64,000 nt of DNA from Candidatus Kuenenia stuttgartensis (GCA_020723505.1 DYIT01000004.1:14560-78559); one strand, 5' to 3'. Shown: positions 1,871 to 27,257, counted from the first letter of the stretch. Translations and numbers: made by a program. The notes: generated by a model not told the origin, from the sequence alone.

Positions 1871-1889
1871 CCATGCGACCAAGCCTCGA

Positions 1890-6782: not shown

Positions 6783-6821
6783 ATTCCACACGAAGCATCG
6801 GCCAGGCGCTTCGCGTGGAAT
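6783..6821 (+). terminator. Long stem-loop overlapping the HEAT gene stop; terminator-like but without a T-tract
   Basis: ATTCCACACGAAGC-N11-GCTTCGCGTGGAAT forms a 14-bp stem with one A.C mismatch. The stem sequence CCACACGAAGC recurs in the hairpin at 29396-29431. Confidence 0.4.
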
Positions 6822-6931
6822 CCATTAATACTCCTTCGTGAATTATCCGGGGCAAATCACGGCGGAAACCCCCGAAACTTATGCGGGAACGGAGTGTTAC
6901 TATATTTGACGCCTTTTCTGGGGATTAGGGA

Positions 6932-7924: not shown

Positions 7925-7963
7925 CACGGCGCCGCGGCCGGTTTCCGTTCCGGCCCGCGGGGC

Positions 7964-7971
7964 TGTATAAT
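7964..7971 (+). promoter_or_regulatory. Extended -10 element TGTATAAT upstream of the 8030 gene
   Basis: Exact TGTATAAT 59 nt upstream of ATG 8030, in the 105-nt gap after the previous stop. The same octamer occurs at 12865 (+) and 60053 (-) in equivalent positions. Confidence 0.4.
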
Positions 7972-8029
7972 GAGGGACTGCGGATCGGTTTCAACGCCGT
8001 CCGCACGGTTTTCCGGAAGGAGGATTGAC

Positions 8030-10299: not shown

Positions 10300-12743
10300 G
10301 CGGGGAACACGGAGCCCGCCCCGGCCCGTGCGGACCTGCGGCCGGGCCGGTCCTGGCCCTTGCCGCGGGTGCGGCCGGTTTCGAAGCCCAGGTCCTCCAG
10401 CTCGTTCTCATGCGCGAGCTCCTCACCTTCTTCTCCGGGCTTGAGATCGTAATCGGCGCGACGCTCAGCGTCTGGATGGCGTTCACAGCCGCCGGCGCGT
10501 TTGCCGCGGGCAGGATTCCCGCCCGGAACCCGGCCGCCAGGCTCGTGATTGCCCTTTCGGCGGCCGGCGTCTGGACCGCCGTGGCGCTCGCGGCAATCCG
10601 CGTAAGCCGCGGCCTCCTCGGCATCGAGTCAGGCGAGGAGCCGTCGCTGCCCGCGTCGGTCCTGCTCTCCATGATTGCTGCAGGCCCGTCCGCGGCGTTT
10701 CTCGGCGCGGCTTTTCCCGCGGCAGCCGCGCTCCTGTCCGGATTGGGCAGATTCGCCCCGGGCAGGGCTTTCCTGTACGAGGCCGCCGGAGGGGCGTTTG
10801 CAGGAGCGGTTTTCACGTTCGTCATGGCCCATCTCCTGAATCCGTTCCAGTCGGCCTTCCTGGCCTCGGGCCTTGCGCTGACGGCAGCCGCAGCCGCCGC
10901 GGGCCGCTCGTTCAGGCTCGGAGGCGCGGCCGCCGCGCTGTTCGGCTTCCTTCTGGCAGTCGCCGGCCCCCTGGACCGTGCCACGGAAAAGGCGCGCTGG
11001 CGCGACTGGAACGAGGGGTACTCCATGGAGGAGACCGCGGACTCGAAGTACGGCAGGATTTCAGTGCTCCGGTATCGGGACCAGACAAGCTTCTTCGAAT
11101 CGGGCCATCTCGCGTTCTCCATCCCGGACATGGAGTCCGGAGCGGAACTGGCGGGCATGGTGATGGTCCAGCACAGGAAGCCCGGATGCGTGCTCGCAAT
11201 CGGGGGGGGAATCTCGGGTCTCGCGCGTGAAATCCTCAGGTTCCCGGTCGAGTCCCTGGACGTAGTCGAGCTGGACCCGAAGCTCGTGGAACTCGCGATG
11301 CGGCGCCTCCCGGCCGAAGAACGGGGAATCTTCTACAAGCCGGGCGTGCGCATGCACTACGCGGACGGCAGGCTGTTCGTGAAGCGGAGCGACCCTGAAT
11401 CCTTCGACCTCGTGCTGATCTGCCTGCCTGATCCGTCCACCGCGTCGCTGAACAGGTTCTACACCAGGGAGTTCTTCGAGGAGGTCGGACTGGCCCTCCG
11501 GCCCGGCGGCGTGTGCGCGTTCACGCTCTCATCGGCGGAGAACTACCTCGGGTCCGAGCTTCTCCTGCGGAACGGGACCGAATACCACACGTTCCTGTCG
11601 GTTTTCCCGCACGTGCGGGTGGTGCCGGGCGACCCGGCGATATTCCTGGGATCGCGGGATCCGTCGTACCTGAGCCTGGACCCGGACGTGCTCGCAGACA
11701 GGCTCCTCGAGAGGAGGCCGGAGCTGGCCGGAGAAGGCGGGGAAGGCAGGCACGGCTGGTTCAGCCCGCACCATTACCACATGAGGCTCGGCTCCGGCGA
11801 CCCCGCCGAAGTCAACAGGCAGCTCCGGACCTGGCCTGCGCCGGGGTCCGCAGGCGAACCGGAAGGAGGCGGCCCGAGACCACTGCCGTCCTTCCTTTCG
11901 GGCGGCCGGGACGGGAAGGACCCATGGGACGAGGACGTCCCGGAGGCGGAGAGGACGCTCAATTCCGACCAGAGGCCGGGCGCCTCGCTTGCGACCCTGC
12001 TCGTATGGGCCCGGAAGATGGGGCATCCGCTGCTCGCGGACGCGCTCCGCGGGCTGTCGTCCCTGCCGGTGGCGTTCCTCGCCCTCCCGGGACTGCTCCT
12101 CCTGGTTCCCGCCCTGGCGCTCCGCGCCGCCGGAAGGCCGGGGGGCGCGGCCGGATGGTCGGCTGCCTCGGCCGTGTTCGCCGTGGGGCTCGCGGAGATG
12201 GTCTTCGAGCTCTCGGTGCTGTACTCGTTCCAGGGATACTACGGGTACGTCTACGGCGAGATGGGGTTCCTGTTCGCGGTCTTCATGGCCGGTCTGGCGT
12301 CGGGATCATGGGTTTCCGGCAGGTGGTTCGCAGAGAGGGGGAGGCCGGCGTTCGTTCCGGCGCTGCTCCTCTGCTGCATCGCCGGATCCGTCTGCCTGCC
12401 CTGGGCCCTGGCAGCCGCCGGATCGGCCGGGAGCCCCGCGATAGTGCTCTCGATTTTTTCCCTGCTCACGTTCCTCTCGGGCCTGCCGGTCGGGCTCCTG
12501 TTCCCCCATGCCTCGGCCTCGGGTGAAGGGGGCCTCGGCAGGGCCTCCTCGCTGTACGCGGCGGATCTCGCTGGCGGCATCGCCGGGGCGCTGGCCGCCG
12601 CGCCGCTTCTGATTCCCTGCGCAGGGCTCTCCGCCACGCTGCGGGTTTTCGTCCCGGCGATCCTGGCGGCGGCGCTGATTGCGCACCTGGCATCGGCATG
12701 CCGGACGCCTGGACGAGAGATTCAACCACCCCCGCCCCTGTAG
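10257..12743 (+). CDS. Polytopic membrane protein fused to a spermidine synthase-like (aminopropyltransferase-fold) domain
   Basis: Central VLAIGGGISGLAREILRFP.ESLDVVELDPKLVELA...ADGRLFV...FDLVLICLPDPSTASLNRFYTREFF matches the SpeE fold. Hydrophobic multi-helix regions lie on both sides. The alternative GTG start at 10296 gives a GTGA overlap with the radical SAM stop. Confidence 0.75.
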   Translation: MPEMRGKGAGRVVVSGEHGARPGPCGPAAGPVLALAAGAAGFEAQVLQLVLMRELLTFFSGLEIVIGATLSVWMAFTAAGAFAAGRIPARNPAARLVIALSAAGVWTAVALAAIRVSRGLLGIESGEEPSLPASVLLSMIAAGPSAAFLGAAFPAAAALLSGLGRFAPGRAFLYEAAGGAFAGAVFTFVMAHLLNPFQSAFLASGLALTAAAAAAGRSFRLGGAAAALFGFLLAVAGPLDRATEKARWRDWNEGYSMEETADSKYGRISVLRYRDQTSFFESGHLAFSIPDMESGAELAGMVMVQHRKPGCVLAIGGGISGLAREILRFPVESLDVVELDPKLVELAMRRLPAEERGIFYKPGVRMHYADGRLFVKRSDPESFDLVLICLPDPSTASLNRFYTREFFEEVGLALRPGGVCAFTLSSAENYLGSELLLRNGTEYHTFLSVFPHVRVVPGDPAIFLGSRDPSYLSLDPDVLADRLLERRPELAGEGGEGRHGWFSPHHYHMRLGSGDPAEVNRQLRTWPAPGSAGEPEGGGPRPLPSFLSGGRDGKDPWDEDVPEAERTLNSDQRPGASLATLLVWARKMGHPLLADALRGLSSLPVAFLALPGLLLLVPALALRAAGRPGGAAGWSAASAVFAVGLAEMVFELSVLYSFQGYYGYVYGEMGFLFAVFMAGLASGSWVSGRWFAERGRPAFVPALLLCCIAGSVCLPWALAAAGSAGSPAIVLSIFSLLTFLSGLPVGLLFPHASASGEGGLGRASSLYAADLAGGIAGALAAAPLLIPCAGLSATLRVFVPAILAAALIAHLASACRTPGREIQPPPPL

Positions 12744-14916: not shown

Positions 14917-14965
14917 GGCAGAATCGCGTCTCCTCCACGTTTCCTTCCGAACCCCGGACATGACA

Positions 14966-17482
14966 TCAGGATTTCAGTCCTTGCTTGTCCAGTAGTAGTT
15001 CCTCGAATACAGCGTACAAGCTTTCGTAGACGGGCCGGCTTTCTTCAGTAGGTTCCGAGTAGCAGTGCCCCATCACTTCGCGAGAGAGCCGGCAGGAATC
15101 AATCAAGACCACGACCCGGCCCAATCCTTCGTCCTTCCAGACGCAACGAAAATTCTTGTCCGGGAGGTCGAACGACTTCCCGCCTTCGATACCGCCCATC
15201 GCGACCGGTTTGATTTCGATTTCATAAGGCTCCAGAATAACGGTGCCTGCTGAGATACTCGCAAGACCGGTGCAATCAACCAGAAGCAGTTTCCCGCCTT
15301 CGCGCACGAAATTCCAAATAATCTCATACTCCTCGGATTCAAAGGCGCGCACTGGATTAATCAGGAGCAGGATGTCAGCTTCCTTCACGGCCCTTTTTAT
15401 TGAATGTTTAATCGAGGGAATGCAACCGAGGCGTTGTAGAGTTACGAAGGGTGTGTCAAAAGCTCTCTTTAGGGGGATTCCGGGTGATCCGACTGCCCCG
15501 GGGAATCCGGCCTCGCATTTGCCACTTAGAAACACCACTCTCGGCCTCTTTACGAACGGCTCCGGAAGGCGATAGTTACGCCGGTTCACCTCCGAAACAA
15601 TGAAAAGCCCGGCTAGACAGCCCACGAAAGCCGCAGGAAGCCCCGCAGCATAAAGCGTGGAGGGTCCCCTCTTCCAGTGAGAAAGAAGCACAGTAGCGAG
15701 ACCTATCGCCCCGGTCAGTAAAAAAACAACGTTCAAGGCATACCCAAAGACGTTCCTCTGATTAAGGTAGTTCATGAACCCCAGAAGAAGGCGGTAGTGA
15801 TCATGCCTGAATAGTGCAAAGGTTGAAAAAACAGTCTCATCCCCCCACACGACGACCCGGCCTTTCCCGACCTTTGTCGCAGCACCGACCATCAAAGTGC
15901 CAAACCGGGAATTCAAATCAGGCCGGAATTCTCCAAAGTTGCTGGGATTCGCCACGTCTTTCCAGTCAGAATAGCAGTTATTCGTGAGGGCTACCGTCTC
16001 ACTCAGGATAGGAGCCTCGACTGAGCAGGACGTCATGAGCTCGAAGGGCTTCTCGACTCGACAAGCTGCAGGATGAAACCCTAGAGGTCCTTCATCGAAA
16101 AGCGTATAGCCCCCGGTGGTGAGCCCGCTCAGCGCGTCGGGCCTGAACCTGAGTCCGAACCGATCCACGAGACGGTTAGAGTTCGTAGTCATCCCCATGA
16201 GGTCGTTGTGGTCGGAAAGTACCAGGAGCCCTCCTCCGCGGCGGACGAAATCCTCCACGGCATTAATTTCCCCATCTTTCAGAGGAATCGTTGGTGTCTT
16301 GACGATCAGGACATCGTGGTCTTCCAGCAGCTCCGGCGTGAAATCCCCTTTCTCGTGAATGTTCACGACATAATATGAGGTGAGCAAGGAAACAGCGTTC
16401 GAGTAGCTGTAAGCCGCGAGGTCGCCATACCAATTCTTGTCGAACTTCTTTGAGACCTGTTCCCAGTAGTCGCTATGGCTGCCGTCCACGAGAATTCGCC
16501 CCTGTTTTTGCTTTCCAGGGTCGTGAAACGTAAGACCTGCCAGAATCAGGAATACCGAGCCTAAGATTGCCGCGGGGAGGCGAAGCGGAACCTGCCTGTA
16601 GATCTGCAAGGATTCGCGGCTTGTTGAGAACGCCCCTCGGAGGTCCAGGGGCAAGAACTTGCCGAGTATCAGGGCAAGCGGCAGGAACGTGGCGATGAGG
16701 AACCATGGATCCCAGAAAACCTCCATCGGAGGCGGAATCGAGTGGTCCTTATCCACATTGGGGAAGTCGGCATATATCGCGAGGACGATAATGAAGCGGA
16801 AGAACGAAAAAGCGAGCAATACCGTCATGAAGAACAGGAACCGCCGCATCCGACTTCCAAAAGCTCCTGCCAGGAACAGAACTAGACCAGCGAAGGCGAA
16901 GCAGGTCATCGGTAAAAAAGCGATCTTGCCCGTGCTGACCACAACGGGAAGGAGGGTTGAAGAACCCTCAAGGTAGGCAGTACCGCCGGAGACGGCGCAG
17001 TCATAACCGAGAATTCTCATCGTCCAGCAGACTGGCCATGAGAGGGCCGTGAAAAATTGTGTCCTTGGTTCAAGGTGCCGGAAGAGAGCACGGAGGACGA
17101 GTTGACCCGGGAAAATCGACAGGAAGACTAACACCGCTGAGAAGGAGATCATCAAAGCTGCTTTCATGCCTGATGCAATCCTGCTGATGCGAGTAAGCGA
17201 AGGCGAAGGTGTCCTATCCACGTGTTGTTCCTGGCGGGTCATCCAGGCAACGAGCAAAAATCCGGAAACGATGAAAGCGATACCCCACCCCCACCCGTGG
17301 TTGCCGTAGTTTCCCAACAGAAATGGCCATGAAAAGGACGCAGTTAGGACCCCGACCCAGATACCGTACCCACGTATCGAGGTCGTCCGAGTAGTCGGGC
17401 TGTCCTCTCCATCTGCAAGGACTCGGCGTGCGCTCTCTATTCCCGATGGCTCGTTTCCGACGCTAATCTGATTATCCCCCAT
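14966..17482 (-). CDS. Polytopic membrane protein (838 aa) with two alpha/beta 'GG.LL.L.DH' modules (GldG/DUF4350/GATase1-like by eye); paralogue of the next gene
   Basis: About 9 N-terminal hydrophobic helices, then module 1 (DVLIVKTP...EINAVEDFVRRGGGLLVLSDHNDL ... GKGRVVVWGDETVF). More helices follow, then module 2 (ADILLLINP...EIIWNFVREGGKLLLVDCTG ... GLGRVVVLIDSCRL). GC is in the mid-50s %, lower than the core. Confidence 0.7.
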   Translation of the reverse strand: MGDNQISVGNEPSGIESARRVLADGEDSPTTRTTSIRGYGIWVGVLTASFSWPFLLGNYGNHGWGWGIAFIVSGFLLVAWMTRQEQHVDRTPSPSLTRISRIASGMKAALMISFSAVLVFLSIFPGQLVLRALFRHLEPRTQFFTALSWPVCWTMRILGYDCAVSGGTAYLEGSSTLLPVVVSTGKIAFLPMTCFAFAGLVLFLAGAFGSRMRRFLFFMTVLLAFSFFRFIIVLAIYADFPNVDKDHSIPPPMEVFWDPWFLIATFLPLALILGKFLPLDLRGAFSTSRESLQIYRQVPLRLPAAILGSVFLILAGLTFHDPGKQKQGRILVDGSHSDYWEQVSKKFDKNWYGDLAAYSYSNAVSLLTSYYVVNIHEKGDFTPELLEDHDVLIVKTPTIPLKDGEINAVEDFVRRGGGLLVLSDHNDLMGMTTNSNRLVDRFGLRFRPDALSGLTTGGYTLFDEGPLGFHPAACRVEKPFELMTSCSVEAPILSETVALTNNCYSDWKDVANPSNFGEFRPDLNSRFGTLMVGAATKVGKGRVVVWGDETVFSTFALFRHDHYRLLLGFMNYLNQRNVFGYALNVVFLLTGAIGLATVLLSHWKRGPSTLYAAGLPAAFVGCLAGLFIVSEVNRRNYRLPEPFVKRPRVVFLSGKCEAGFPGAVGSPGIPLKRAFDTPFVTLQRLGCIPSIKHSIKRAVKEADILLLINPVRAFESEEYEIIWNFVREGGKLLLVDCTGLASISAGTVILEPYEIEIKPVAMGGIEGGKSFDLPDKNFRCVWKDEGLGRVVVLIDSCRLSREVMGHCYSEPTEESRPVYESLYAVFEELLLDKQGLKS

Positions 17483-17487
17483 TCGCC

Positions 17488-19980
17488 TTATCCTTTCCCT
17501 CTCAACTGCTTCATGCGCGTAAGCATGTTACGGATGAAAGTGATGTTCCCGAGGTGCCACGCCACCATGCTCTCAACATTCCTGTTTGTAAAAAAGCGGC
17601 TATCCGACACAAACAGCATGCCTCCCTTCCCGTACTCCCGGTAAGTTGCGAGCAAATCCCCTTTGGAAACGAAGAATCTGTGAACGGCGCCGGGCGCGAG
17701 ATCTCCTTTGCTAGAGGGAGCCGGCTCGCGCACAATGATGGGCCATGCATCCATGAACTCGGGGTCCATGGGTTTCTTGTCCTTGTAGTACGTGTTCGGT
17801 GCCCGTCCGAGTGACCGGCCTTCAATGTCCAACCCAATGGCCTCAAGGAGCCGCTGTGATCCCTCCCTTTCCTCGTACCCGACGCTTAGAATGACCTGGC
17901 CTCCCTTAGCCATATAGTCCGTGATTAGATCGACCTCGTGGCATTGAATCGTTTTGAGGGGAGAAAGGATGACCAGGAGTTCAGCCTCGGATATGCTCTT
18001 CCGGTCGAAACAATTCAGAGAAACCGGAATGAACGCATTCCGTTCCAGATTAAGGTACAGGGCGCCTATTCCCCTTCCCTCGTCTCCGCCCCGGGAGGCC
18101 CAGGGGATGTGGTAGTAGTCAATTGCGGCCAGAGGGCCGGCGATAGCAGGGCCGCTCATCCGCTCCTTCGAGATTACGTCGGAAACCGGTCCGGAAAGCG
18201 CGAGGAAGAATGGGAAGATCAACGCAAGCAGCCTGGAGCCGCCGGACGCGCCCAAGGTGGTCGTCAGCAGAATCACCCAGACCAGGAATGCCAGCGGCTT
18301 AAGCCAGTACCAGCGCCCGTACACCGTTTCGCAGGAAAGCCATGTAAAGACGTTGTGCAGGAAGGGGGTGTATATGGAAGTTACAGACCCGTTCTGAAAT
18401 GATGTCGTATCTCCGAAAACCAGCACTTTCCCCCTCCCGTAGAAGGCCGCCGCGAGCAGGCACATGTCCCCCAGCTTTTCCCCATGCTCGTAGGAGTAAT
18501 TCCCGAGAAGGGATCCGCCAACGTTGTAAGGATTGCCTCCGTCCGAGAAGGAGAGCGGCCCCCATATTATGGAAATCGCAGGCGGGCCGATGGTTAGAGA
18601 TGCGCCGACGTCTATCCCTGTCTCATCCCGCGATCGCGCGCCTGCCAAAACCGGATGCCGTGCGAAAGACTGGCAGTAACTCCAGCCTCCGCGGCACGGG
18701 AACGCGGAGTCGAATTCGAACCGAACGTTGATTCTGTCGAGAAGTTCGTTGTAGGTGTCCTGGAGCCCGAAGACGTTCGTGTGGTCGCCCAGGATGAGCA
18801 AAGCCCCGCCCCTTTCCACGAACCCCCAGATTGCCCGGATCTCCCCCTCCTCCCACCGACGCCCCAGGTTGATTATGGCGAAGATGTCAGTCTCTTCAAG
18901 TTGTTCGGGCTTGAGGCGTTCGGCGTCGAGTTTCGAGACCCGGAACCCGTCCAGTTCCAGGAAGGCGGGAAGATGTCCAAACATGCCTCCCGAGTACGAG
19001 CCGTACTTTCCTAAGACTGCGGTGTCCCAGTCTAGATAGCCCTTATTCCAGAACATAATCCGATTTCTTCGAGGGGACAGGATTTCCCATGATTGCATCT
19101 GAAAGAGCGTAATCGGGACAAACGCGGCAAGCGCAACTAAGCCGACTACCCTACTGCGACTCGAGAATAGTGCAGAAGGGATCCTCTCCTTCGCGGGAAA
19201 AAGCATGGAGAGCCCGGCCAATGGCATGAGCAGTACCGGAAAAAGCCATCGGACCGAATTGGCAAGCACACCCGCCTCTTGTGGAAAGACGGTCGACGAG
19301 CTCTGGATGACCAGGAAGGCCGTCCAAGCCCCGAAGACCACTATCAGAGCTGCCGATAAAACCCGCCATGCAAAAATTCGGAAGGCAGCGGTCCCAATCA
19401 AGTAGACAATCGCAAACAGAAGCACCCAGAGACCGGAAACGGATGGACCGATTGTAATCTCGGCATTGATTAATATGCGTCCAAGCAGACCTGTGTACTC
19501 GTTGCTGAAAACTTCGAAGAAATTGTAGACAATCGGAACGGTTTCCAGGGCGAACCCCAGCGCCCACGCGAAGTACGAAAGAAGGCGCAAAGGACCGGCG
19601 CATAACGCCGGGCGTCCCCAAATAGCCGATGCCCTTCCGAACCCCCAGAGAAAGACGATAAGTAAGCCAAGGACATAGAGCCGGTCGGTCGAGAGGAAGA
19701 GAAGAAAGCCAGGGAATGCCATTGAGAGATAGGGAAGAAGCGCGTTTCGACGGAAGATAGCTTCACGTTTCGAAGGAGCCTGGAAGAGAAGAAGTCCTGC
19801 AAGGAGAAGGGCGATAAACAAGCGGCCGTTTAAAGGGCTCAGGATGCCGAAAGTGCCCCATGCTATGAGAAGTATCAGGAGAAACGTGGAATGGATGACA
19901 AGGTTCCTTGCGACTTCGGAAACCCGCAGGTTGGTGATTTTCCCCCTCAATCTCCCGAGAATGGATTCACCTGCGCTCAT
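17488..19980 (-). CDS. Polytopic membrane protein (~830 aa), paralogue of 14966..17482 with the same two-module layout
   Basis: Module 1: DIFAIINLGRRWEEGEIRAIWGFVERGGALLILGDHTNV ... GRGKVLVFGDTTSF. Module 2: AELLVILSPLK...DLITDYMAKGGQVILSVGYEE ... GKGGMLFVSDSRFF. Start at MSAGES (ATG 19980, preceded by GGAGAAG) is preferred; the ORF track extends to 20055. Confidence 0.7.
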   Translation of the reverse strand: MSAGESILGRLRGKITNLRVSEVARNLVIHSTFLLILLIAWGTFGILSPLNGRLFIALLLAGLLLFQAPSKREAIFRRNALLPYLSMAFPGFLLFLSTDRLYVLGLLIVFLWGFGRASAIWGRPALCAGPLRLLSYFAWALGFALETVPIVYNFFEVFSNEYTGLLGRILINAEITIGPSVSGLWVLLFAIVYLIGTAAFRIFAWRVLSAALIVVFGAWTAFLVIQSSSTVFPQEAGVLANSVRWLFPVLLMPLAGLSMLFPAKERIPSALFSSRSRVVGLVALAAFVPITLFQMQSWEILSPRRNRIMFWNKGYLDWDTAVLGKYGSYSGGMFGHLPAFLELDGFRVSKLDAERLKPEQLEETDIFAIINLGRRWEEGEIRAIWGFVERGGALLILGDHTNVFGLQDTYNELLDRINVRFEFDSAFPCRGGWSYCQSFARHPVLAGARSRDETGIDVGASLTIGPPAISIIWGPLSFSDGGNPYNVGGSLLGNYSYEHGEKLGDMCLLAAAFYGRGKVLVFGDTTSFQNGSVTSIYTPFLHNVFTWLSCETVYGRWYWLKPLAFLVWVILLTTTLGASGGSRLLALIFPFFLALSGPVSDVISKERMSGPAIAGPLAAIDYYHIPWASRGGDEGRGIGALYLNLERNAFIPVSLNCFDRKSISEAELLVILSPLKTIQCHEVDLITDYMAKGGQVILSVGYEEREGSQRLLEAIGLDIEGRSLGRAPNTYYKDKKPMDPEFMDAWPIIVREPAPSSKGDLAPGAVHRFFVSKGDLLATYREYGKGGMLFVSDSRFFTNRNVESMVAWHLGNITFIRNMLTRMKQLRGKG

Positions 19981-22585
19981 CTTTCTCTTCTCCAGGCGCT
20001 GGCCCATGTTCCGGAGCAAGCAAGACTCGCAACGCTGCCGCGTTTCCCCGGACAAGGTTCAAGGGCCCCGCCTCTCCCGGGCTGAAACCCCTTGCCTCCG
20101 CGCGAAAAGTATACGTCCCCTGCTTAAGAAGTAATGAGACCTTGCCGTCTTCGCCGGCGATGGGATTGATGAGCCTCCTCTCCTTTCCTCCAGCCGTGAA
20201 GGCATGCAGTGAAGCTCCAGGAATCGGTTTGCCCTTGTCATCCAGGATCTCGGCCTCAACCTTCACGCCCATACCTAGGGAGAAGATTGCACTGAAGCCG
20301 TAATTGTTGTGCGAAACCTCTATCTCGTCGTTCACTTCCGGGGCGAGTTCATTACCCTGACCCACGAGCATGTACTTGCCCGGGTCGAGGTACTTGAAGG
20401 CGCCGAACGCCTTTGCCTCGAAGTCCTTGAATCTAGCCGTGCTGTGGATCGCCCAGGCGGGACTTCCCGGCGGTATATGATAGAGGACGACTTCCACGCT
20501 TCTGCCTGCGAGACTGCATCCCTCGCTCCTTACCTCGATGTTGATTTCCCCTCTCGGCAGGCTGATGTCTGCAACCAAGTGCCCGACCTTATCCTTGACT
20601 TCGATGTATTTGCGGTAAGTATCGCCTCGGCGTCTTACTTCGAGAGTGTACTTCCCGGGGCGGACTGTCTTGTATATGTAGCGCCCTTCCTTCATCTCAG
20701 CTTTCTGAGCAAATCGGGCGGTACGGTCCCATGGGTAGAGGAGGAAAATCTCGGCATCCTGAACCGGGAGCCCGCCGTAAATCAAGTTGCCTTCCAGAGA
20801 AGGGCTTAACCCGTACATCTTGTCGTTGAACTCAAGCTGTGAGCTCATTTCGTTATCAAGAATAAACCCGGTAACGGGATGCCTTTCCATTCCCTTGAGG
20901 GCACACAGGGAAGTGAGGTAGGAGAAGCCTGGATTTACACCCGTGAGATTGAAATTGCCATTACCGTCGGGGAAGGTGATACGGAAGAAGCCCTCCTCGT
21001 CATAGACGACTAAAGGCTCGAACTTGCAAAGAGCTTTCCCTGAAATACGCCCCCCTTTGGAGAGTTGGATGACGAGAGGTTCCGATGGTTTCTCTCCTTC
21101 CTTCCCTTTCTCCGTGCTCGGTCCAATCGAGACGAACCTCGTGGTTGCGTAGTCCGGGTGAACTACGAGAAAAAAGGATGGGTATGCCGGGACGCGGTCG
21201 AAGCAGAATCGGCCTCCAGCATCCGTCGCGGTCCAGCGCCGAATTACGGCGCCCCCTATATTCTGGACTATCGAACCAAGAAGCTTCCCGGCACGGTTGG
21301 AAGGTTCCCAACAGACCATGGCGTCAGACAGCGGCTCTCCAGTATCCTGCGCATGAACATGGCCTTTGACCTTGCGGCCGGCATTGAACCTAAGATCCTC
21401 TGGGTTGACTCTGCCGTCGGAGATCAGACGAAACGGATAGTATAGGTCCGCAAAGGCCGGATTTTCGGACCGGATTAGGTAGTTGCCTGCCGGAAGCGCA
21501 GGCAGCTCTATCCTGCCATCGTCATCTGATTTCACGGGTAGTGAAAATGCATCTTCCGGAATGTTCGGGATTGCGATGCGGAAGGCGGATTTCCCGATGG
21601 GATTTTTCCCTTCGGTGTCGGAAGCCCTGATAGTCCCTGCATCGGCCTTTGGCATGTCAATCTTCACCCCCTGGGATCCGGAGATCACGTTTTCGACTAG
21701 GGAAATGAATTTTCCTTTATTAAAGAGAAGCAGTGTGTATGGTCCGCCGGGGAGGTGCTCGAATCGGAAGGAGCCGTCATTCGCGGGGTGAATGATGAAT
21801 CGGAAGGGCACGGCAGGGGTCAGTGCGACCAACTCAATGTCCTCTGGGGCCATGTCCGTACTCGTCCTGACTGATCCCTCTAACCAAGCTCCTTCTTCGA
21901 GGCGAATCTTAAGCTCCTTCAACAAGACGCCGGGTCTGATGACTGCGCCCTTGCATGCAGGGGCAAAACCCTGTGACCAGGCATAGACCTTGAACGCGCA
22001 AGGCGGAAGTTCCGTTTTGAAGGCACCGTCTTTTTCTGAGACTAATGAAGCGACAGATGGGGAGGGCGAGCTCCTCGACTCTGCTCGGGGCAGGCTTCCT
22101 GACGAGCTGTTCCCGCCATGCGGCCACCCGAAACCCGGAAGTCCTGAAACACCTGAGGCAATGTCTTGCATGGCGAGGACACCGTCTTTGACCAGTAAAA
22201 CCGGCTCCGGATTCCACACTCCGTTGAATGGAACGAAAAATATCCGACATCCTGAAATTGATTTGGCTGAAGGGTTGAGTACCAATCCTTCAATCAAGCC
22301 CCGGTTCCCAGGGACTTTTTCCAGGGTTTTCGACGCATCACGCTCTTTATCTCCAGCCTTGTCCGAATCGTGTTCTCCTTTCTTTTTATCATCCACGGAA
22401 TGCTGTGGGTCGTTCGGAAACCAAATTCGATCATCACGGCGCCCTGCTGATCCCCAGAGCAAGAACGCGGAGACAATCGGAACGGAGGCGATAAGACCCC
22501 AAGAGGCGATCGTTACTGAAACTCTCAGGGGCGGCCAAGAAGCCGCCCCTGAGAGGAAATCCCGCATTTTACCGAAGGCATTCAT
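19967..22585 (-). CDS. N-terminally membrane-anchored protein (872 aa) built of repeated CarboxypepD_reg-like beta-sandwich modules
   Basis: Single N-terminal TM (VTIASWGLIASVPIVSAFLLW). Recurrent 'PG.Y' strand motif: LPGGPYTLLLF, LPAGNYLIRSE, VRPGKYTLEVR, LDPGKYMLVGQ, LKQGTYTFRAE. ATGA overlap with the upstream gene at 22582-22585. Confidence 0.75.
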   Translation of the reverse strand: MNAFGKMRDFLSGAASWPPLRVSVTIASWGLIASVPIVSAFLLWGSAGRRDDRIWFPNDPQHSVDDKKKGEHDSDKAGDKERDASKTLEKVPGNRGLIEGLVLNPSAKSISGCRIFFVPFNGVWNPEPVLLVKDGVLAMQDIASGVSGLPGFGWPHGGNSSSGSLPRAESRSSPSPSVASLVSEKDGAFKTELPPCAFKVYAWSQGFAPACKGAVIRPGVLLKELKIRLEEGAWLEGSVRTSTDMAPEDIELVALTPAVPFRFIIHPANDGSFRFEHLPGGPYTLLLFNKGKFISLVENVISGSQGVKIDMPKADAGTIRASDTEGKNPIGKSAFRIAIPNIPEDAFSLPVKSDDDGRIELPALPAGNYLIRSENPAFADLYYPFRLISDGRVNPEDLRFNAGRKVKGHVHAQDTGEPLSDAMVCWEPSNRAGKLLGSIVQNIGGAVIRRWTATDAGGRFCFDRVPAYPSFFLVVHPDYATTRFVSIGPSTEKGKEGEKPSEPLVIQLSKGGRISGKALCKFEPLVVYDEEGFFRITFPDGNGNFNLTGVNPGFSYLTSLCALKGMERHPVTGFILDNEMSSQLEFNDKMYGLSPSLEGNLIYGGLPVQDAEIFLLYPWDRTARFAQKAEMKEGRYIYKTVRPGKYTLEVRRRGDTYRKYIEVKDKVGHLVADISLPRGEINIEVRSEGCSLAGRSVEVVLYHIPPGSPAWAIHSTARFKDFEAKAFGAFKYLDPGKYMLVGQGNELAPEVNDEIEVSHNNYGFSAIFSLGMGVKVEAEILDDKGKPIPGASLHAFTAGGKERRLINPIAGEDGKVSLLLKQGTYTFRAEARGFSPGEAGPLNLVRGNAAALRVLLAPEHGPAPGEEKDERR

Positions 22586-22725
22586 TTCCTTTTATCGCTC
22601 TTGTCGTTATTTGCAGGCGGAGGAGGCGGATCAGCGAAGAACTCCACGCCGGCGGAAATCGGGGAGAGGTTCCCCGCCGCATCCCGCGCCTGCGCATGGA
22701 TCGTGTGCCAGCCGGGCGACAGCGG
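22569..22725. repeat. Direct repeat copy A (~157 bp): 3' end of the Ig-repeat gene plus the first 6 codons of the 872-aa gene
   Basis: Aligns by hand with 26840-26988. The first ~120 nt differ at about 7 positions. The last ~30 nt are more diverged, with a 9-nt indel (ccagccggg present only in copy A). Confidence 0.85.
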
Positions 22726-24981
22726 TTTGACGACCTGGAAAGAGAACAACCCGCCCCCATCCGCAGGCGTCTCCCCTTCCGGATTTGCATCAATAAGGAT
22801 TGACACGATGCTCAGAGGCTCTGAGGTTCCCCTGATTATTGGGGTCTTTGTCGTCATCTCGCCGTTCACCGGCGATCTGATGAGGGGTGCCGCCGGAGGC
22901 ACAGTGTCTACTTTGAATACGATGGTCTCGGAGGTTGCAGTGTTTCCTGCGCCATCTGAGGCTACGGCGTAGACTGTGTGGAGACCCTCAGCCAAGGGGG
23001 CGGTCAGAGTGAATGAGAACACTCCGCCCGGTCCGGTAGTTGTGGTTCCGGCCAGGTTCTCGTCAACCACGATTGCGATTTCTGCGTCAGAGTCCGTGCC
23101 TGCGCCGGAAATTGTCGGCGTGCTGTCGTTTGTCAGTTCAATTGGGTTGAGAATCGGTGTCCCGATGAGCGTATCCACAGTGAATGAAACTGTTTTGGAT
23201 GCGGCCGTGTTTCCCGCAGCGTCAGTCGCCACGGCGTAGCCCGTGTGCAGACCGTCGCCAAGCGCAGTGGGTACCGTCATATTGAACCCGCCGCCTTCGT
23301 TTGCCGTGACCAAACCAACCAGATCGCCATCAACGTATACATGCACTAAAGCGCCCACATCTGTTCCTGAACCCACAACATCAGGTGTGTTGTCCGAGAT
23401 TACGCTCCCGTTGGCCGGACTCGTGATAATCGGCGTTCCAATCACGGTGTCAATAATAATATGCACATAGTTTGACGGTTCTGTGAATACTCCTTCCGGA
23501 CTCACGCCAATTGCAAAAATAACATGCTCACCATCCTGTAAAATAATTTCCGTTTCATATTCGAATTGTCCGCTTGGACATGATATTTCTTCAATCTCAA
23601 TGCTATCAATATAGAATTTGCAATTAAATCCAACTTCCACTGTTCCAATTATTTCTGGTTTACTATCATTTGATATCAGATAATCAGGAGGGGAAACAAT
23701 ATGTGGCGGAGAATATCCATGCTCTCTACCACATGTTCCACTCTCATCTGGGACTTTTTTTGTTTTCCTTACACTGCATCTAATAGCCTCACCACTTTGG
23801 TTATTGCCAATACTGCAGACTCCTTTTTTCTCTTCATTCAATAATGTGCAAATCCCTTTCCCAACATCCTCAACAGAACAAAATGCATTGTTCTTTTTTC
23901 CGACCTGATTCTCAGAAGGAGTAAATACTGAACATTGTCCAGTATTTGCTTCCTGCATAATGCTGCAGTTCGAAAAGTGCCCGGATCCGCCACCGTCCAT
24001 AACTGAGCAAAATGCATCAAATGCACCTTTTTCAATTGAACATCTTGCTTCTCCCGTTTGAGTGCTTTGCACACTGCATTTAGCTACCCCCATTCCTCCG
24101 CCATCAGAGTCAATAGCACTGCATTCTGGACTTCTTTCACCATCGAGTGGAGAATCATGAAAGACACTGCAACTAGAATTGTTACCGCTGTCATTGCTAA
24201 AAACTGAACAAAAAACCTCCTCCGTTTCTTTTTGTACAACCGAGCATTTCTGTTGTTCTCCGCGATCCATGAAAACGCTGCACATGTCGCTCGATCCAAT
24301 TCTAGTTCTCGATTTACCTACGCTGCAATTTGCTTTCCCACCTTCCCCTGCATTATCAACAGAACACCATTGATCTGATTCTTTTGACCAGCTTACGACC
24401 GAACAACCTGCTTGCCCTGCCGATTTAGTACTTTCTAGAACACTACAACTATTTCGATGAGGAGGTCCCTCTGTCGATCCCTCTTGTACGCTACAACTTG
24501 CCCTACCCGAATCAACCCATGCCGAGCAAAACGTATTCTCTTTGCTTGTATCGAATACCGAGCATGAACTTTTATTTGAGTTTCCATAAACTGAGCATCG
24601 TGCCTCTCCAATATCATTTTCACCAACAACAGAGCATTGCTTCCTATCTTCCGCTACAGAACAGTGCTGACTCTCCCCCGATGTTGAGCATCTTCCTCCA
24701 GCATATATATCGCAATCAACTGAACAATTTTTATCTGGCCGCGGGAGATGCTCTGTACTACATACAATATTTTGAATAGAAATAACACCGGATTCTGCAA
24801 TACCAAAAGGATTCTGGATTTTAATTTCATTTGATAAAATCCTAGAACCGATATTTTCACAATCCAGTTGGCCTAGATAATTATAGTTCAATTCAGCAAA
24901 ACAAACATCAACCTGAAAAGAAAGTAACGAAATTACAAGAACCAAACCGTATCTGATATTTCTATAGCTTGTGCTACTCAT
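22582..24981 (-). CDS. Secreted chimeric surface protein (799 aa): signal peptide, ~27 'C-S-V' repeat units, one AT-rich Ig-like module, then three GC-rich bacterial Ig-like repeats and a Pro/Lys tail
   Basis: Signal peptide MSSTSYRNIRYGLVLVISLLSFQVDVCFA. C-S-[VIA] units span residues 74-417. Three ~90-aa repeats end in ...GLHTGYAVATDAAGNTA / ...GLHTVYAVASDGAGNTA / ...GWHTIHAQARDAAGNLS. GC jumps from the mid-30s % to roughly 55-65% near 23450 inside the ORF. Confidence 0.8.
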   Translation of the reverse strand: MSSTSYRNIRYGLVLVISLLSFQVDVCFAELNYNYLGQLDCENIGSRILSNEIKIQNPFGIAESGVISIQNIVCSTEHLPRPDKNCSVDCDIYAGGRCSTSGESQHCSVAEDRKQCSVVGENDIGEARCSVYGNSNKSSCSVFDTSKENTFCSAWVDSGRASCSVQEGSTEGPPHRNSCSVLESTKSAGQAGCSVVSWSKESDQWCSVDNAGEGGKANCSVGKSRTRIGSSDMCSVFMDRGEQQKCSVVQKETEEVFCSVFSNDSGNNSSCSVFHDSPLDGERSPECSAIDSDGGGMGVAKCSVQSTQTGEARCSIEKGAFDAFCSVMDGGGSGHFSNCSIMQEANTGQCSVFTPSENQVGKKNNAFCSVEDVGKGICTLLNEEKKGVCSIGNNQSGEAIRCSVRKTKKVPDESGTCGREHGYSPPHIVSPPDYLISNDSKPEIIGTVEVGFNCKFYIDSIEIEEISCPSGQFEYETEIILQDGEHVIFAIGVSPEGVFTEPSNYVHIIIDTVIGTPIITSPANGSVISDNTPDVVGSGTDVGALVHVYVDGDLVGLVTANEGGGFNMTVPTALGDGLHTGYAVATDAAGNTAASKTVSFTVDTLIGTPILNPIELTNDSTPTISGAGTDSDAEIAIVVDENLAGTTTTGPGGVFSFTLTAPLAEGLHTVYAVASDGAGNTATSETIVFKVDTVPPAAPLIRSPVNGEMTTKTPIIRGTSEPLSIVSILIDANPEGETPADGGGLFSFQVVKPLSPGWHTIHAQARDAAGNLSPISAGVEFFADPPPPPANNDKSDKRK

Positions 24982-26411
24982 TTAGGACCCCCTTTTCCGA
25001 AAAAGTCCTCGAGAAACCCTTCAGCTGCTTCTTCAGGAGACAACCGCTTGATATATACTTTAGCTTCTATGTCTGGGCCATCTATAACTAACGTGTTATC
25101 AGCGCCAGGAAATACACTGATTAGCTTGTAATAGTCTGATTGAATTTTAAGCACATGTGTGCCGATTGGGACATTTGATACAATAGTATATCCGGCTGTA
25201 TTTGAGTTAAATTTAATCGGCGCAAACCTGTGCGACTTTTCAATCAACAGGAATTTAATTACATCAGAAAAGGGGGCACGGTTATCATCATTAATAAAAT
25301 GAATATTCAATTTATAAGCCTTTTCCAGAAGGAAATCAATTCTGTTAATATTCTGTTTATCATTTATTATAAAAGTAGTGGACATTTTCGCAAATCCTTC
25401 GCAACCAATAACCAAATCGTACTCTCCGAAAGGGACATTACGCAAAGAAAATGTACTCTCGGAGAAAACGCCGGATTTCCTTAAACTGTATATTTCATTG
25501 CAATTTGGCGAGATTGAGATAAGCTCATATGAGAATTCACATTTATCATGGTTGAAACAAGGGTTATTTATCTGAATCTGTAGCTCTGCAACCGATAAGA
25601 AAATATCGAACTTAACGGGCAGGTTATTAAAAACGACATTTCTTGAAAGTGTGACTGAATTTTCGTTAGGTAGAAATATATAAATATAATAATCCTCAAG
25701 AAGCATTCCAGGAAAGATATAAAAACCATCCGACATAGTAAGATAAGATTGGAAAAGTCTATGATTCTGATGCAATTCTATCCGTGCATTTTCAACTGGG
25801 ACGTAATGCTTATCATAGATAGTGCCATAAAGAGAATCATCGCCAATTAAGAAAAAGTCAGGGAGAACTAGATTCAGTCTCTTAACGTCATTTGGAAATA
25901 GAGAAATCTTTACTGATTTGTAAATCATACTATTTTCAGGAAGAAAAGCGATAATCGAAACAAAATGAGGTCTTGCAACCAAAGTCTGAATAGAATAGAA
26001 TGTGCCGTCTTCAGATGCAAAGAGAATCTTCTGCCTGGAACTGGGATTATTTACAATGATTTTTGCGTTTGAACATGGGGATCCATCTGCTTTTAGGACT
26101 TTGCCGAGCACCATGGCTTCATTAAATCTCAGATTCGATATATTTGTTTGGAAATCTGTCAATCTATTTTGACAAATCTGATTGTAAGATTGCTCTGATG
26201 AAACAGAATCAAAAAAGGTTTGATTTAATCCAACTGAATTCGCAGCATTTTGTGATAAGGAATAGCCAGCTAGGGTTATGGAATCACCTGCTTTTAAAAA
26301 ATGAATAAATAGAAAAATAGCAAATAAACAAATAAAAACTATTATAAAGAAGGAAAGATAAATAGATTTACAATTCCAATGGGAGTTCTTTATATTATCA
26401 TATTTAATCAT
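24978..26411 (-). CDS. N-terminally membrane-anchored protein (477 aa) with ~4 CarboxypepD_reg-like beta-sandwich modules; very AT-rich
   Basis: TM IYLSFFIIVFICLFAIFLFIHFL. Module starts such as GKVLKADGSPCSNAKIIVNN and GTIYDKHYVPVENARIELHQ. 'P.G.Y/H' strands NVPFGEYDLVIG and NVPIGTHVLKIQ. ATGA overlaps at both ends. About 32-35% GC. Confidence 0.7.
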   Translation of the reverse strand: MIKYDNIKNSHWNCKSIYLSFFIIVFICLFAIFLFIHFLKAGDSITLAGYSLSQNAANSVGLNQTFFDSVSSEQSYNQICQNRLTDFQTNISNLRFNEAMVLGKVLKADGSPCSNAKIIVNNPSSRQKILFASEDGTFYSIQTLVARPHFVSIIAFLPENSMIYKSVKISLFPNDVKRLNLVLPDFFLIGDDSLYGTIYDKHYVPVENARIELHQNHRLFQSYLTMSDGFYIFPGMLLEDYYIYIFLPNENSVTLSRNVVFNNLPVKFDIFLSVAELQIQINNPCFNHDKCEFSYELISISPNCNEIYSLRKSGVFSESTFSLRNVPFGEYDLVIGCEGFAKMSTTFIINDKQNINRIDFLLEKAYKLNIHFINDDNRAPFSDVIKFLLIEKSHRFAPIKFNSNTAGYTIVSNVPIGTHVLKIQSDYYKLISVFPGADNTLVIDGPDIEAKVYIKRLSPEEAAEGFLEDFFGKGGPK

Positions 26412-26629
26412 GATGCCAACCCCATTGAGGTTTTGTAATAAAACTTACAGATGTCGACAAATAGGTAGTTAATAATAGCTGTACGTGCTGAAGAAAATCT
26501 TTGAAATCCATTGAACATGTCCTTCATCCTAAGCCAAATTTCCCATCGCATCGATTTAACCAAATGAGGGTGGATGTAAAATAATGAGCAAATAACATCC
26601 ATAATCCCTCCATGTTTATAGAATCCCAA
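26408..26629 (-). CDS. Possible small ORF (73 aa) heading the AT-rich part of the operon
   Basis: Its stop overlaps the start of the 477-aa gene in an ATGA arrangement. A 73-codon open frame is fairly unusual in ~33% GC DNA. No recognisable motif. Confidence 0.25.
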   Translation of the reverse strand: MGFYKHGGIMDVICSLFYIHPHLVKSMRWEIWLRMKDMFNGFQRFSSARTAIINYLFVDICKFYYKTSMGLAS

Positions 26630-26839
26630 TCCCCATCCTTAAAGTCAAGAAAAATCAGAAAAACAAAAAACGTGTGAAATGTTATTGGGGAGTTCGGAAA
26701 CCGAGTACAGTCAAGTGTGGTTACAGTTCTCTTGGATATCCTTCGGTTGATTCAAAACGACGCAACAACCAGTAGGCCAATGTGTTACAACGCAGCTACG
26801 AAAACGGAAGCCTCATAATTTCATAGAAAAACCCGTTTC

Positions 26840-26988
26840 TTACCGAAGGCAATCATTTCTTTTTATCGCTCTTGTCGTTATTTGCAGACGGAGGAGGCGG
26901 ATCTGCGAAGAACTCCACGCCGGCGGAAATCGGGGAGAGGTTCACAGCCGCATCTCGCGCCGCGCAATGGACCGTGTGTGACAGCGGG
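26840..26988. repeat. Direct repeat copy B (~149 bp), same orientation as copy A, at the right edge of the AT-rich block
   Basis: Encodes ...HTVHCAARDAAVNLSPISAGVEFFADPPPPSANNDKSDKKK*, versus ...HTIHAQARDAAGNLSPISAGVEFFADPPPPPANNDKSDKRK* in copy A. It then retains ATGATTGCCTTCGGTAAG (MIAFGK; copy A has MNAFGK) before AT-rich DNA starts at 26839. Confidence 0.85.
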
Positions 26989-27257
26989 GCGCGCTCGAAA
27001 AGGACCCTGTTCGTGATTTCAGCGCCCACGTACTTGAGGGCACGTGAGAGCATACCCACTGCGTAATTCGCGGCAGCCGGATCCGAGTCGACGGGCGGAA
27101 GAACCAGCACGACCTTCTTGCCCTTGAACGGGAACTTGCGGATTGCGTCGAACCAGCGGTACACGAAAGCCTTGAACTGGGCGGTGGGCCCCCACCAGTA
27201 CTCGGGCGTCCCCAGAACCGTTCCCACACCCCGCTCTCCTCCACATTGCGGCTTCAT
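26853..27257 (-). pseudogene. Chimeric remnant: internal fragment of a flavodoxin-like/NADPH-dependent FMN reductase-type protein fused to a duplicated tail of the Ig-repeat gene
   Basis: LGTPEYWWGPTAQFKAFVYRWFDAIRKFPFKGKKVVLVLPP...YAVGMLSRALKYVGAEI resembles the middle of flavodoxin-family proteins (GtPvYw...t.q.KafiDR). The N-terminal FMN-binding part is missing, with an in-frame TGA 3 codons upstream of the ATG. The C-terminal 40 aa are repeat copy B. Confidence 0.55.

Follow-up and report, generated by a model that had tools for sequence, protein, structure and literature searches.

A candidate envelope module in a mosaic, compositionally foreign operon of Candidatus Kuenenia stuttgartensis: paired double-GIFT membrane proteins and a cysteine-repeat partner

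Eukaryotic GIFT domains act as non-catalytic protein-protein scaffolds, and GldG, an auxiliary component of the ABC-2 transporter GldAFG, has two transmembrane helices around one large domain. In the S1P-SPRING complex the GIFT domain contacts the cysteine (Cys)-rich ectodomain of SPRING, a precedent for contact between a GIFT domain and a Cys-rich protein (PMC11231238). Proteins of the arCOG01314/DUF4350 type have a signal peptide, one large domain outside the cell and a single C-terminal transmembrane helix, and are linked to vWA and MoxR AAA+ genes (PMC5898192). The YTV cell-wall proteins of Planctomycetales, as cited in PMC8567305, are secreted, Cys-rich and repeat-bearing. Here we analyse a locus that shares some features with each of these systems. 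It lies within a 64,000-nucleotide stretch of Candidatus Kuenenia stuttgartensis (GCA_020723505.1, DYIT01000004.1:14560-78559; hereafter the window), between dnaJ and a rimK-like gene, and encodes two paralogous polytopic membrane proteins, G830 and G838 (the pair), a Cys-repeat protein, B799, and two membrane-anchored proteins with CarboxypepD_reg domains, C477 and C872.

We tentatively read this region as a horizontally acquired, mosaic operon for an energy-independent envelope module, in which a heterodimeric platform formed by the pair would handle a Cys-repeat client; our confidence in this reading falls a little short of even. Literature searches on DUF4350, GldG, GIFT, cysteine-rich proteins and PF09822 gave no description of such a pair or of its Cys-repeat partners, and where sources name the pair proteins they appear only as 'hypothetical' or 'DUF4350 domain-containing'. 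A first-pass annotation of the same DNA had stated that the genes could not be mapped onto any named system, and this holds: the defining features of GldG and of the vWA/MoxR (Bat) systems were not found.

Architecture and conservation of the G830/G838 pair

G838 and G830 share one architecture. A polytopic N-terminal domain of six to eight transmembrane helices (~300 residues; ~320 in G838) is followed by a first GIFT domain (GIFT1), two further transmembrane helices and a second GIFT domain (GIFT2). The Pfam families ABC_transp_aux, DUF4350 and IFT52_GIFT each match twice in each protein. For G838 the respective E-values are 1.2e-13 (PF09822, 51.4 bits against a gathering threshold of 34.7), 2.8e-13 (PF14258, 51.0 against 30.4) and 4e-10 (PF23355, 39.6 against 27.2); for G830 the DUF4350 match (PF14258) reaches 39.6 bits and an E-value of 8.7e-10. 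At the level of domains, both proteins belong to the GIFT superfamily (DUF4350 / ABC_transp_aux / IFT52_GIFT). The two alpha/beta modules that the first-pass annotation had seen in each paralogue are confirmed, and they are recognisable as GIFT-type domains.

The structure of G838 was modelled with AlphaFold2 (predicted local distance difference test, pLDDT, 81; predicted template modelling score, pTM, 0.83). In this model, an N-terminal membrane part made of helices, into which a small beta-sheet is inserted, precedes two alpha/beta domains that are separated by a hairpin of two helices. When compared with the PDB by Foldseek, it matched GIFT-type or GATase1-like domains only: the best match was the N-terminal domain of IFT52 (E 4e-7, TM-score 0.69), and others were STM3548, ThuA, GH42 beta-galactosidases or related glycosidases, the site-1 protease chain of S1P-SPRING complexes (8uw8_A, 9csd_A) and the human OST-B subunit (6s7t chain G). 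The GIFT domains of IFT52, OST48 and site-1 protease thus include the nearest matches by structure and profile. The eukaryotic proteins, however, have a single GIFT domain and no polytopic domain, and lack the invariant D-H-T / G-D-S-T / H / N / D residues of the prokaryotic pair. Two loops of the pair proteins, a short one between the hairpin helices and another before the last N-terminal helix, are basic. These charges place both GIFT domains of each protein outside the cytoplasmic membrane, so that all four GIFT domains of the pair likely face outwards.

The polytopic domain has no such relatives. Eleven N-terminal domains gave no Pfam match even at E<=10, and the domain modelled alone (AlphaFold2, pLDDT 74) had no neighbour in the PDB (best E 0.6). 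We considered an exosortase/archaeosortase- or GT-C-like domain on the basis of a pattern found by eye (LLG.DA..G.T....LG.TWE.L ... R), for which neither Pfam nor the PDB returned a match. Since we know of no exosortase structure in the PDB, the missing match does not refute this idea.

GldG has in common with the pair a GIFT-type alpha/beta domain under PF09822 and an extracytoplasmic, membrane-anchored location, which raises the alternative that G830 and G838 serve, like GldG, as auxiliary substrate-binding subunits of an ABC-2 transporter, as in the GldAFG system of gliding and type IX secretion in Bacteroidota; the ATPase and permease would then be encoded elsewhere. The ABC_transp_aux matches (51 and 29 bits) and a weak match of G838 to TIGR03521 (E 1.5e-3) would fit it. 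However, the latter scores 17.2 bits against a cut-off of 389.85 and G830 does not match at all; neither ABC_tran nor an ABC-2 permease turned up among the scanned proteins of the island and its flanks; and at other loci only 2 of 124 downstream neighbours match ABC_tran, while the families that recur upstream do not include it. With its own ~300-residue polytopic domain, its two GIFT domains per protein, the fixed order of what looks like an obligate paralogue pair, its Cys-repeat neighbours and no GldA or GldF partner, the pair is also unlike the GldG architecture outlined above, and we regard this alternative as very unlikely. Placement among GldFG-type ABC auxiliary components, which the first-pass annotation had named as a result that would count against its reading, thus holds for the GldG/IFT52-type GIFT domain and fails for membership of GldG itself.

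A second alternative would count the set, as a variant form, among the DUF4350-vWA-MoxR (Bat-like) complexes that have been predicted in archaea and bacteria for membrane remodelling or secretion. The two share an outward-facing DUF4350 domain and, in part, their surroundings, as Ig-like and S-layer-like secreted proteins are encoded in arCOG01314/DUF4350 neighbourhoods (Makarova et al. 2015, PMC5898192); the arCOG01314 complex, too, is a prediction only (PMC5898192). The pair differs in its polytopic double-GIFT architecture and its Cys-repeat partners. No vWA, DUF58 or AAA+ (COG0714) gene is present in the island and none is among the recurrent families listed for 237 neighbours of pairs, and we give this alternative next to no credence. 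Scans of the five island proteins against Pfam and NCBIfam likewise found no ATPase, glycosyltransferase, protease or secretion-system family, in agreement with the first reading of the island.

The pair family is large. A word-indexed search returned 21 relatives, a profile search of 1.84 billion cluster representatives returned 1,678 full-length relatives (clusters at 50% identity) at E<=1e-30, and 404 relatives are found in GTDB species genomes. Among bacteria they occur in Planctomycetota, Thermodesulfobacteriota, Alphaproteobacteria (including the cultured Sagittula salina), Polyangium, Chloroflexota, Bacteroidota, Bacillota, Acidobacteriota, Nitrospirota and several candidate phyla, and among archaea in Methanothrix and Thermoplasmatota. 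The closest relative of the pair, at locus L001, is 67% identical (P0002 is the counterpart of G838).

In all 65 loci with two intact adjacent genes, which come from many bacterial and archaeal phyla, the product of the first gene is closer to G830 and that of the second to G838. The window conforms to this arrangement, with G830 followed by G838 as adjacent paralogues of ~800-860 residues and the same architecture. Both types retain, in GIFT1, the residues GG..(D/E)-H-T, N436, D449, H470-P and G-D-[ST]-[TS], whereas only the second (G838) type retains R229 in the membrane domain, E341, Y358, C486 (in 57 of 65), S553 and F555. G830 of the window keeps all invariant GIFT1 residues, does not have the Cys, Arg and Tyr by which the G838 type is recognised, and aligns with the upstream paralogues of other loci. 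By these sequence comparisons, G830 and G838 are shown to be an ancient paralogue pair. Complementary conservation, fixed order and translational coupling are as expected of an obligate heterodimer with one 'complete' subunit, and G830 and G838 may form one.

Cysteine-repeat neighbours and a possible client

B799 combines a signal-like N-terminus with 33 Cys residues, 24 of them as CS[VIA] at a median spacing of 12 residues, and with three Big_13/Ca_tandemer immunoglobulin-like (Ig-like) repeats (Big_13 E 1.7e-37, Ca_tandemer 90.6 bits; Pfam/NCBIfam). This agrees with its first description as a secreted 799-residue protein with Cys repeats and Ig-like repeats. Its only relative is P0172 (41% identity).

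When 86 loci were searched by tblastn and phmmer, almost no relatives of C872, C477 or B799 were found beside other pairs. The association of pairs with their neighbours emerged instead from clustering of open reading frames (ORFs), from Cys-periodicity criteria and from Pfam. To count as a strict Cys-repeat ORF, a sequence had to contain 15 or more Cys, which made up 5% or more of its residues, to have 80% or more of its Cys-Cys gaps in the range of 3-20 residues, and to begin with an N-terminal hydrophobic segment. Within 2.5 kb of a pair there are 34 such ORFs, distributed over 32 of the 83 non-redundant loci (0.102 per kb). Further from the pair there are only 3 (0.005 per kb), which amounts to a ~20-fold enrichment near the pair. 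Co-occurrence beyond this genome, which the first-pass annotation had proposed as a check, is therefore conserved, both in this enrichment and in the order of the pair (65/65).

The repeat unit of these proteins is specific to lineages: CS[VTA] every 12-16 residues in Planctomycetota, TFDP....C every 11 residues in Thermodesulfobacteriota (in proteins of more than 1000 residues), SGC every 5 residues in Alphaproteobacteria, and TC/CT every 4-6 residues in Methanothrix, Clostridia and others. None of the 10 Cys-repeat proteins tested had its repeats covered by a Pfam or NCBIfam family; the only matches were a sub-threshold one to 'Cys-every-fifth RiPP peptide CefA' (18.6 bits against 30) and, in the non-repeat part of one protein, a far-sub-threshold one to TolB/PD40. 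The YTV proteins resemble them in bearing Cys-rich envelope repeats, and the CS subtype discussed below occurs mainly in planctomycete loci. However, YTV proteins, as far as PMC8567305 describes them, occur in Planctomycetales only and without a reported link to GIFT, whereas the pair with its Cys-repeat proteins spans many bacterial phyla and archaea, and the tested Cys-repeat proteins have no Pfam match. We therefore treat YTV as an analogue only, no test here relating it to the Cys-repeat proteins.

Despite their different repeats, the Cys-repeat proteins have something in common directly after the signal peptide. In 27 of 40 Cys-repeat genes a motif [ST]P[LIMAF][FY] followed by an amphipathic stretch is encoded at this position (for example KNSPIFEKALQRTLKAW and DSPLFAQSVLAAEASL), as opposed to 18 of 825 other genes of the same loci. 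Proteins of the CS subtype share a different N-terminal motif, G.A..SLVSF, whose equivalent in B799 is FGIAESGVISI, and this part of B799 aligns with planctomycete CS-repeat proteins that adjoin pairs. Judged by this alignment, B799 belongs to the CS subtype. The pair of the window is thus accompanied, like those of other loci, by a secreted Cys-repeat protein, encoded in the same operon and carrying the CS-subtype motif.

The remaining two proteins of the island are of the beta-sandwich type. C872 matches CarboxypepD_reg (E 1.9e-27) and, more weakly, several transthyretin-like families of Pfam, and has a single N-terminal hydrophobic segment (residues 20-38). C477 matches CarboxypepD_reg at 3.4e-11 and has a transmembrane segment at residues 21-39; among 5.8 billion proteins no homologue was found besides itself. 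Both were first described as membrane-anchored CarboxypepD_reg-like proteins, and the Pfam matches and the one N-terminal hydrophobic anchor in each support this. In 7 planctomycete loci, CarboxypepD_reg proteins (cluster c8) adjoin a CS-repeat gene or the pair. In three proteins of the G838 type (P0137, P0143 and P0151), CarboxypepD_reg, SdrD_B or SpaA beta-sandwich domains are fused after GIFT2; by the Rosetta-stone argument, these fusions connect C872 and C477 with the pair. Finally, at locus L088 a CarboxypepD_reg protein is followed by a CSV-repeat protein, by a protein with CSV repeats and Big_13 (P0172) and, after a 4-nt overlap, by the next gene, an order that parallels C477, B799 and C872 in the window. 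The gene order of L088, the adjacency in planctomycetes and the fusions together argue that the five genes are a real functional set, as the first-pass annotation had supposed; the universal core of this set is, on comparison of the loci, the pair plus a candidate Cys-repeat client.

Few other genes recur. In 4 alphaproteobacterial loci the gene immediately downstream of the pair encodes a TlpA-like redoxin (WCxPC), which suggests that the thiol state of the client matters. No other Pfam family is shared by more than 2 of the 113 upstream or more than 3 of the 124 downstream neighbours, which points to the absence of a conserved energy source.

Several of the other loci contain candidate clients of unusual form. 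In L035, L038, L041 and L061 (metagenome-assembled genomes (MAGs) of Thermodesulfobacteriota and anammox bacteria), they are 1011-1448 residues long with 83-119 Cys, and their acidic 11-residue units, T-F-D-P-x-x-x-x-C, look like metal- or calcium-binding arrays. In L049, L066 and L079 (Methanothrix/Methanotrichaceae MAGs), proteins of 425-471 residues, transcribed divergently from the pair, have a Cys every 4 residues (..CANTCGQTCRGTCARTC..), and these repeats come after an N/TPLFDYRY motif. A compact version of the system is found in a cultured carrier, Sagittula salina M10.9X (L043; NZ_JAGISH010000005.1, 971-8795): secreted proteins of 261 and 294 residues (cluster c11, unannotated) are followed by a 255-residue candidate client with TPLF, SGC repeats and an fn3-like part, by pair proteins of 813 and 770 residues, and by a TlpA-like redoxin (WCVPC). 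This locus would suit as an experimental model; another cultured carrier is Polyangium sp. y55x31.

In the mechanism that we propose, G830 and G838 would form a heterodimeric platform. The client, here B799, would be exported by Sec and recognised through the short motif just after its signal peptide by the conserved pocket of GIFT1, which would bind or process it. The candidate pocket comprises D-H-T ... N ... D ... H ... G-D-S/T-T in both subunits, with Cys, Arg and Tyr in the G838 type only. The platform may then hold, polymerise or chemically process the client on the outside of the membrane, and the product would be a thiol-rich layer or fibre of the envelope, with C872 and C477 as membrane-anchored beta-sandwich stalks that would accompany the platform in this lineage. 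Extended to the whole family, the proposal is that pair and client are a widespread system that recognises SP[LIM]F...L or G.A..SLVSF and builds thiol-based envelope material without ATP. We put this forward as a possibility that we would, on balance, rather doubt than assert.

The main rival to this mechanism concerns the substrate. The pair could be an extracytoplasmic enzyme or carrier for a polysaccharide, a lipid-linked glycan or a metal, the Cys-repeat proteins being merely co-regulated with it. Some GIFT domains are found in settings connected with sugars (Pfam OST48_N, GH42-type beta-galactosidases, ThuA), and the many invariant polar residues of GIFT1 resemble an active or ligand site. 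To our knowledge, however, no GIFT domain is catalytic. No glycosyltransferase, polysaccharide-export or metal-transport family recurs by the pair either, the Cys-repeat proteins alone doing so, and we consider a non-protein substrate rather unlikely. Two further points would fit one: an OpgC and a PMT_2 GT-C glycosyltransferase are part of the gene string at L011, and a DUF4350 gene of Geobacter, whose kinship with the pair family is unchecked, responds to cobalt (PMC7726332).

The string at L011 (Planctomyces sp. MAG, 5-11887) is co-directional and consists of an OpgC-like acyltransferase, a PMT_2/GT-C protein, a CarboxypepD_reg protein, a CS-repeat protein, a 367-residue protein and the pair. 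From this single locus one might suspect glycosylation or acylation of the client in some lineages.

Composition, scars and history of the island

The five genes differ from the rest of the window in composition, and do so in two tiers. The GC content at third codon positions (GC3) of 31 other long ORFs of the window is 0.786 +/- 0.097, as against 0.61-0.67 for G838, G830 and C872 (middle tier) and 0.31 for C477 (low tier). B799 belongs to both tiers: calculated per 50 codons, its GC3 is 0.18-0.36 over codons 1-500 and 0.60-0.66 beyond codon 550, and the change, from ~0.26 to ~0.62, falls in frame where the second Ig-like repeat begins. Measured by tetranucleotide L1 distance, the middle tier (14966-23450) differs from the rest of the window by 0.300, where same-size background chunks give 0.115 +/- 0.026 (maximum 0.161), and the low tier (23451-26824) by 0.867, where they give 0.179 +/- 0.035 (maximum 0.287). 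Composition thus lies beyond the spread of the host in both tiers. The checks of GC, tetranucleotides and codon positions bear out the two-tier low-GC island between core genes that was first described.

The coordinates of the features are collected in Table 1, where the ORFs and their coupling-type junctions coincide with those of the first-pass annotation. In the direction of transcription the order is dnaJ, a relic ORF, a leader, C477, B799, C872, G830, G838 and the rimK-like ORF. The junctions consist of three ATGA overlaps (B799 and C872 share 4 nt), a 14-nt overlap between C872 and G830, and a 5-nt gap between G830 and G838. On one side the island is flanked by a spermidine-synthase-like gene, corA and the rimK-like gene, and on the other by dnaJ, trkA, trkH, glgC and pgi; both flanks are housekeeping genes.

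Table 1. Features of the island and its borders (positions in the window)
Feature	Position	Strand	Description	Basis
rimK-like ATP-grasp ORF	14961-14059	minus	4 nt past the G838 stop	
G838	14966-17482	minus	second-position subunit of the pair	ORF map
G830	17488-19980	minus	ATG start; first-position subunit of the pair	
C872	19967-22585	minus	membrane-anchored CarboxypepD_reg-type beta-sandwich repeat protein	
Direct repeat, copy 1	22554-22707	minus	last ~110 nt of B799, stop and first ~25 nt of C872	
B799	22582-24981	minus	secreted mosaic of Cys repeats and Big_13; candidate client of the pair	
In-frame compositional breakpoint in B799	23400-23500, ~23450	minus		GC3 per 50 codons, 200-nt GC scan
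C477	24978-26411	minus	low-GC membrane-anchored CarboxypepD_reg repeat protein	
Possible 64-73-residue ORF	26408-26602	minus	ATGA overlap with C477; uncertain gene	
Low-GC non-coding leader	26603-26824	minus	between repeat copy 2 and the possible 64-residue ORF	
Direct repeat, copy 2	26825-26978	minus	relic 'Big_13 tail + C872 start' junction, abuts the low-GC block	
Relic 134-residue ORF	26853-27257	minus	in-frame fusion of an internal FMN_red/flavodoxin-like fragment with the duplicated B799 tail	
dnaJ	28536-27373	minus	flank upstream of the relic ORF in transcription order	

The island carries scars. A 154-nt direct repeat, 88% identical between its copies, which are spaced 4271 nt apart, contains a 39-nt exact core (22634-22672 in copy 1, 26905-26943 in copy 2); it brackets only a section of the island, namely the low-GC block and the mid-GC 3' part of B799. 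The relic ORF matches only positions 73-112 of the FMN_red profile of Pfam (E 4e-4), and its translation ends ...NLSPISAGVEFFADPPPPSANNDKSDKKK, nearly repeating what the final ~40 codons of B799 encode. Judging from these sequences, the relic ORF probably marks the insertion site of the island on the dnaJ side. The low-GC tier is thus limited by the relic junction on one side and by the breakpoint inside B799 on the other.

The likeliest reading of the island is that it is horizontally acquired, compositionally foreign and mosaic, because its tiers are compositional outliers, its flanks are housekeeping genes, the repeat and the gene fragment are scars, and the pair of L001, the closest relative (67%), is not beside rimK. 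The first-pass proposal of horizontal acquisition is supported by the same observations. The history of the locus would comprise at least two transfers. In the first, a set of middle GC (Big_13 tail, C872, G830 and G838) may have been inserted into an FMN-reductase gene beside dnaJ. In the second, the upstream half (leader, C477 and the 5' two-thirds of B799) may have been replaced through recombination by a low-GC allele, with one crossover in the repetitive Big_13 region and the other junction leaving the 154-nt duplicated scar. Either a homology-anchored illegitimate event or a site-specific integration at the 3' end of the gene would give this picture.

Might the low-GC block be an artefact of assembly, as the first-pass annotation had cautioned? 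It (~26825-23450) could have been mis-joined through the 39-nt core and in truth be a 4,271-nt circle or part of a second strain, in which case the chromosome would keep a single hybrid repeat. In favour of this, GC falls by ~25 points at the block, and C477 and B799 have no close homologues elsewhere. We found C477 (P0173) exactly matched on an independent Logan contig of 4292 nt (L087, SRR13164373_21139), which is 100% identical to positions 26934-22643 of the window and so reproduces the in-frame GC switch as well. Each end of L087 falls exactly 30 nt into one of the two 39-nt cores, as expected of a k=31 graph at a repeat, so connectivity across the repeat is not proven by this contig. However, the GC switch on the other side of the block lies inside an unbroken ORF of 799 codons and is reproduced at 100% identity by L087; the repeat copies differ by ~12% on both sides of the core, so that ordinary reads or larger k can phase them; the block encodes no replication or recombination gene; and its gene order and content match natural units in L088 and planctomycete loci. 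We therefore regard a mis-join as quite unlikely. Of the worry about a chimera, the block and its GC switch are cleared by reproduction on L087, and what is left concerns the joins across the 39-nt core.

Upstream of C477, the possible 64-residue ORF is predicted as a gene on L087 too and has no Pfam match. If it is not real, the low-GC leader extends over ~410 nt up to the start of C477. The leader is presumed to be the promoter region of the operon; a promoter scan gave no convincing promoter there, and no Rfam family matched it at E<=0.1. A scan of the region for the terminator consensus found 11 sites, none prominent, against 17.2 +/- 4.1 in shuffled sequence.

The rimK-like gene, which the first-pass annotation had mentioned together with the set, was considered as a member and rejected. 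Its GC3 (0.77) is that of the core; in L001 an unrelated gene is found at the corresponding position downstream, and tblastn found no match to it in the 86 loci. Its absence from L001 and from these loci suggests that it is a neighbour by accident of insertion.

Some features elsewhere in the window deserve mention. Positions 1-1400 are a second low-GC patch, with an ORF at 8-724 (GC 0.39, GC3 0.37) that is TPR_6/YfiO-like and has a KKEEDKKKE tail, and one at 740-1381 (GC 0.54) without a Pfam match; the two may be a foreign insert cut by the start of the window. Long ORFs without a Pfam match at 48827-50494 (minus strand) and 37107-39032 (plus strand), with GC3 of 0.59 and 0.69 compared with ~0.8, could be further foreign genes or wrong frames. 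At 9040-12743 (plus strand), a radical SAM gene of the AmmeMemoRadiSam system (TIGR04337, 272 bits) overlaps the start of the gene for an 828-residue protein, which matches spermidine synthase/aminopropyltransferase models over ~residues 67-455 only (114 bits against a cut-off of 472), so that its C-terminal half has no assignment. Both genes lie just upstream of corA and the rimK-like gene, and a polyamine or poly-glutamate theme is possible. A 296-residue protein encoded at 4616-5506 (plus strand), of core composition, has 23 Cys in zinc-ribbon modules (Zn_ribbon_TFIIB, DZR) and is unrelated to B799.

Weighing the proposal and its meaning for the family

Several observations weigh against the proposal of a transferred operon in which a heterodimeric platform handles a Cys-repeat client. 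The heterodimer, the binding of the client and the resulting 'layer or fibre' are each inferred, and so is the 'surface-structure or assembly module' of the first-pass annotation, of which the self-contained foreign set is what stands. A strict Cys-repeat neighbour is found in only ~40% of loci, though many contigs end early. B799 does not have the canonical SP[LIM]F motif, and C872 separates it from the pair. In at least five loci with enough upstream sequence (L040, L053, L063, L070 and L076), the G838 type seems to occur without its partner. Neither Pfam nor the PDB offers a relative of the polytopic domain from which a catalytic or transport role could be judged. The G838 of the window keeps H425, N436, D449, H470 and D548, but has N in place of the invariant T426 and E in place of the invariant S549. 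P0002 shares this Asn and Glu, while all 65 other second-type proteins have Thr and Ser, so that the G838 pocket of this clade may work differently or be degenerate or disabled. As to the transfer, the 64-kb window has no tRNA gene, no integrase or transposase is found among the scanned island proteins and flanking ORFs, and close relatives would be needed to reconstruct in which order the recombination events took place.

With ~1,700 clusters at 50% identity, in many bacterial phyla and in Methanothrix and Thermoplasmatota, the family is of a considerable scale, and its carriers include environmental groups that are hard to study, such as planctomycetes, sulfate reducers and acetoclastic methanogens. 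The link to neighbouring genes turns a domain of unknown function into a testable hypothesis about the cell envelope. The locus of the window shows such a module moving and being re-tailored: its client end (C477 and the Cys part of B799) would have been swapped for a low-GC donor allele while the platform was kept, the pattern expected of a surface-exposed, diversifying component. If the proposal is true, this would be a new way to build or decorate cell surfaces, which would use a membrane domain whose fold is not yet in the PDB and, as clients, lineage-specific, hypervariable Cys-repeat proteins with a motif at the mature N-terminus. It would also give a prokaryotic role to GIFT domains, so far known from intraflagellar transport, oligosaccharyltransferase, site-1 protease and gliding.

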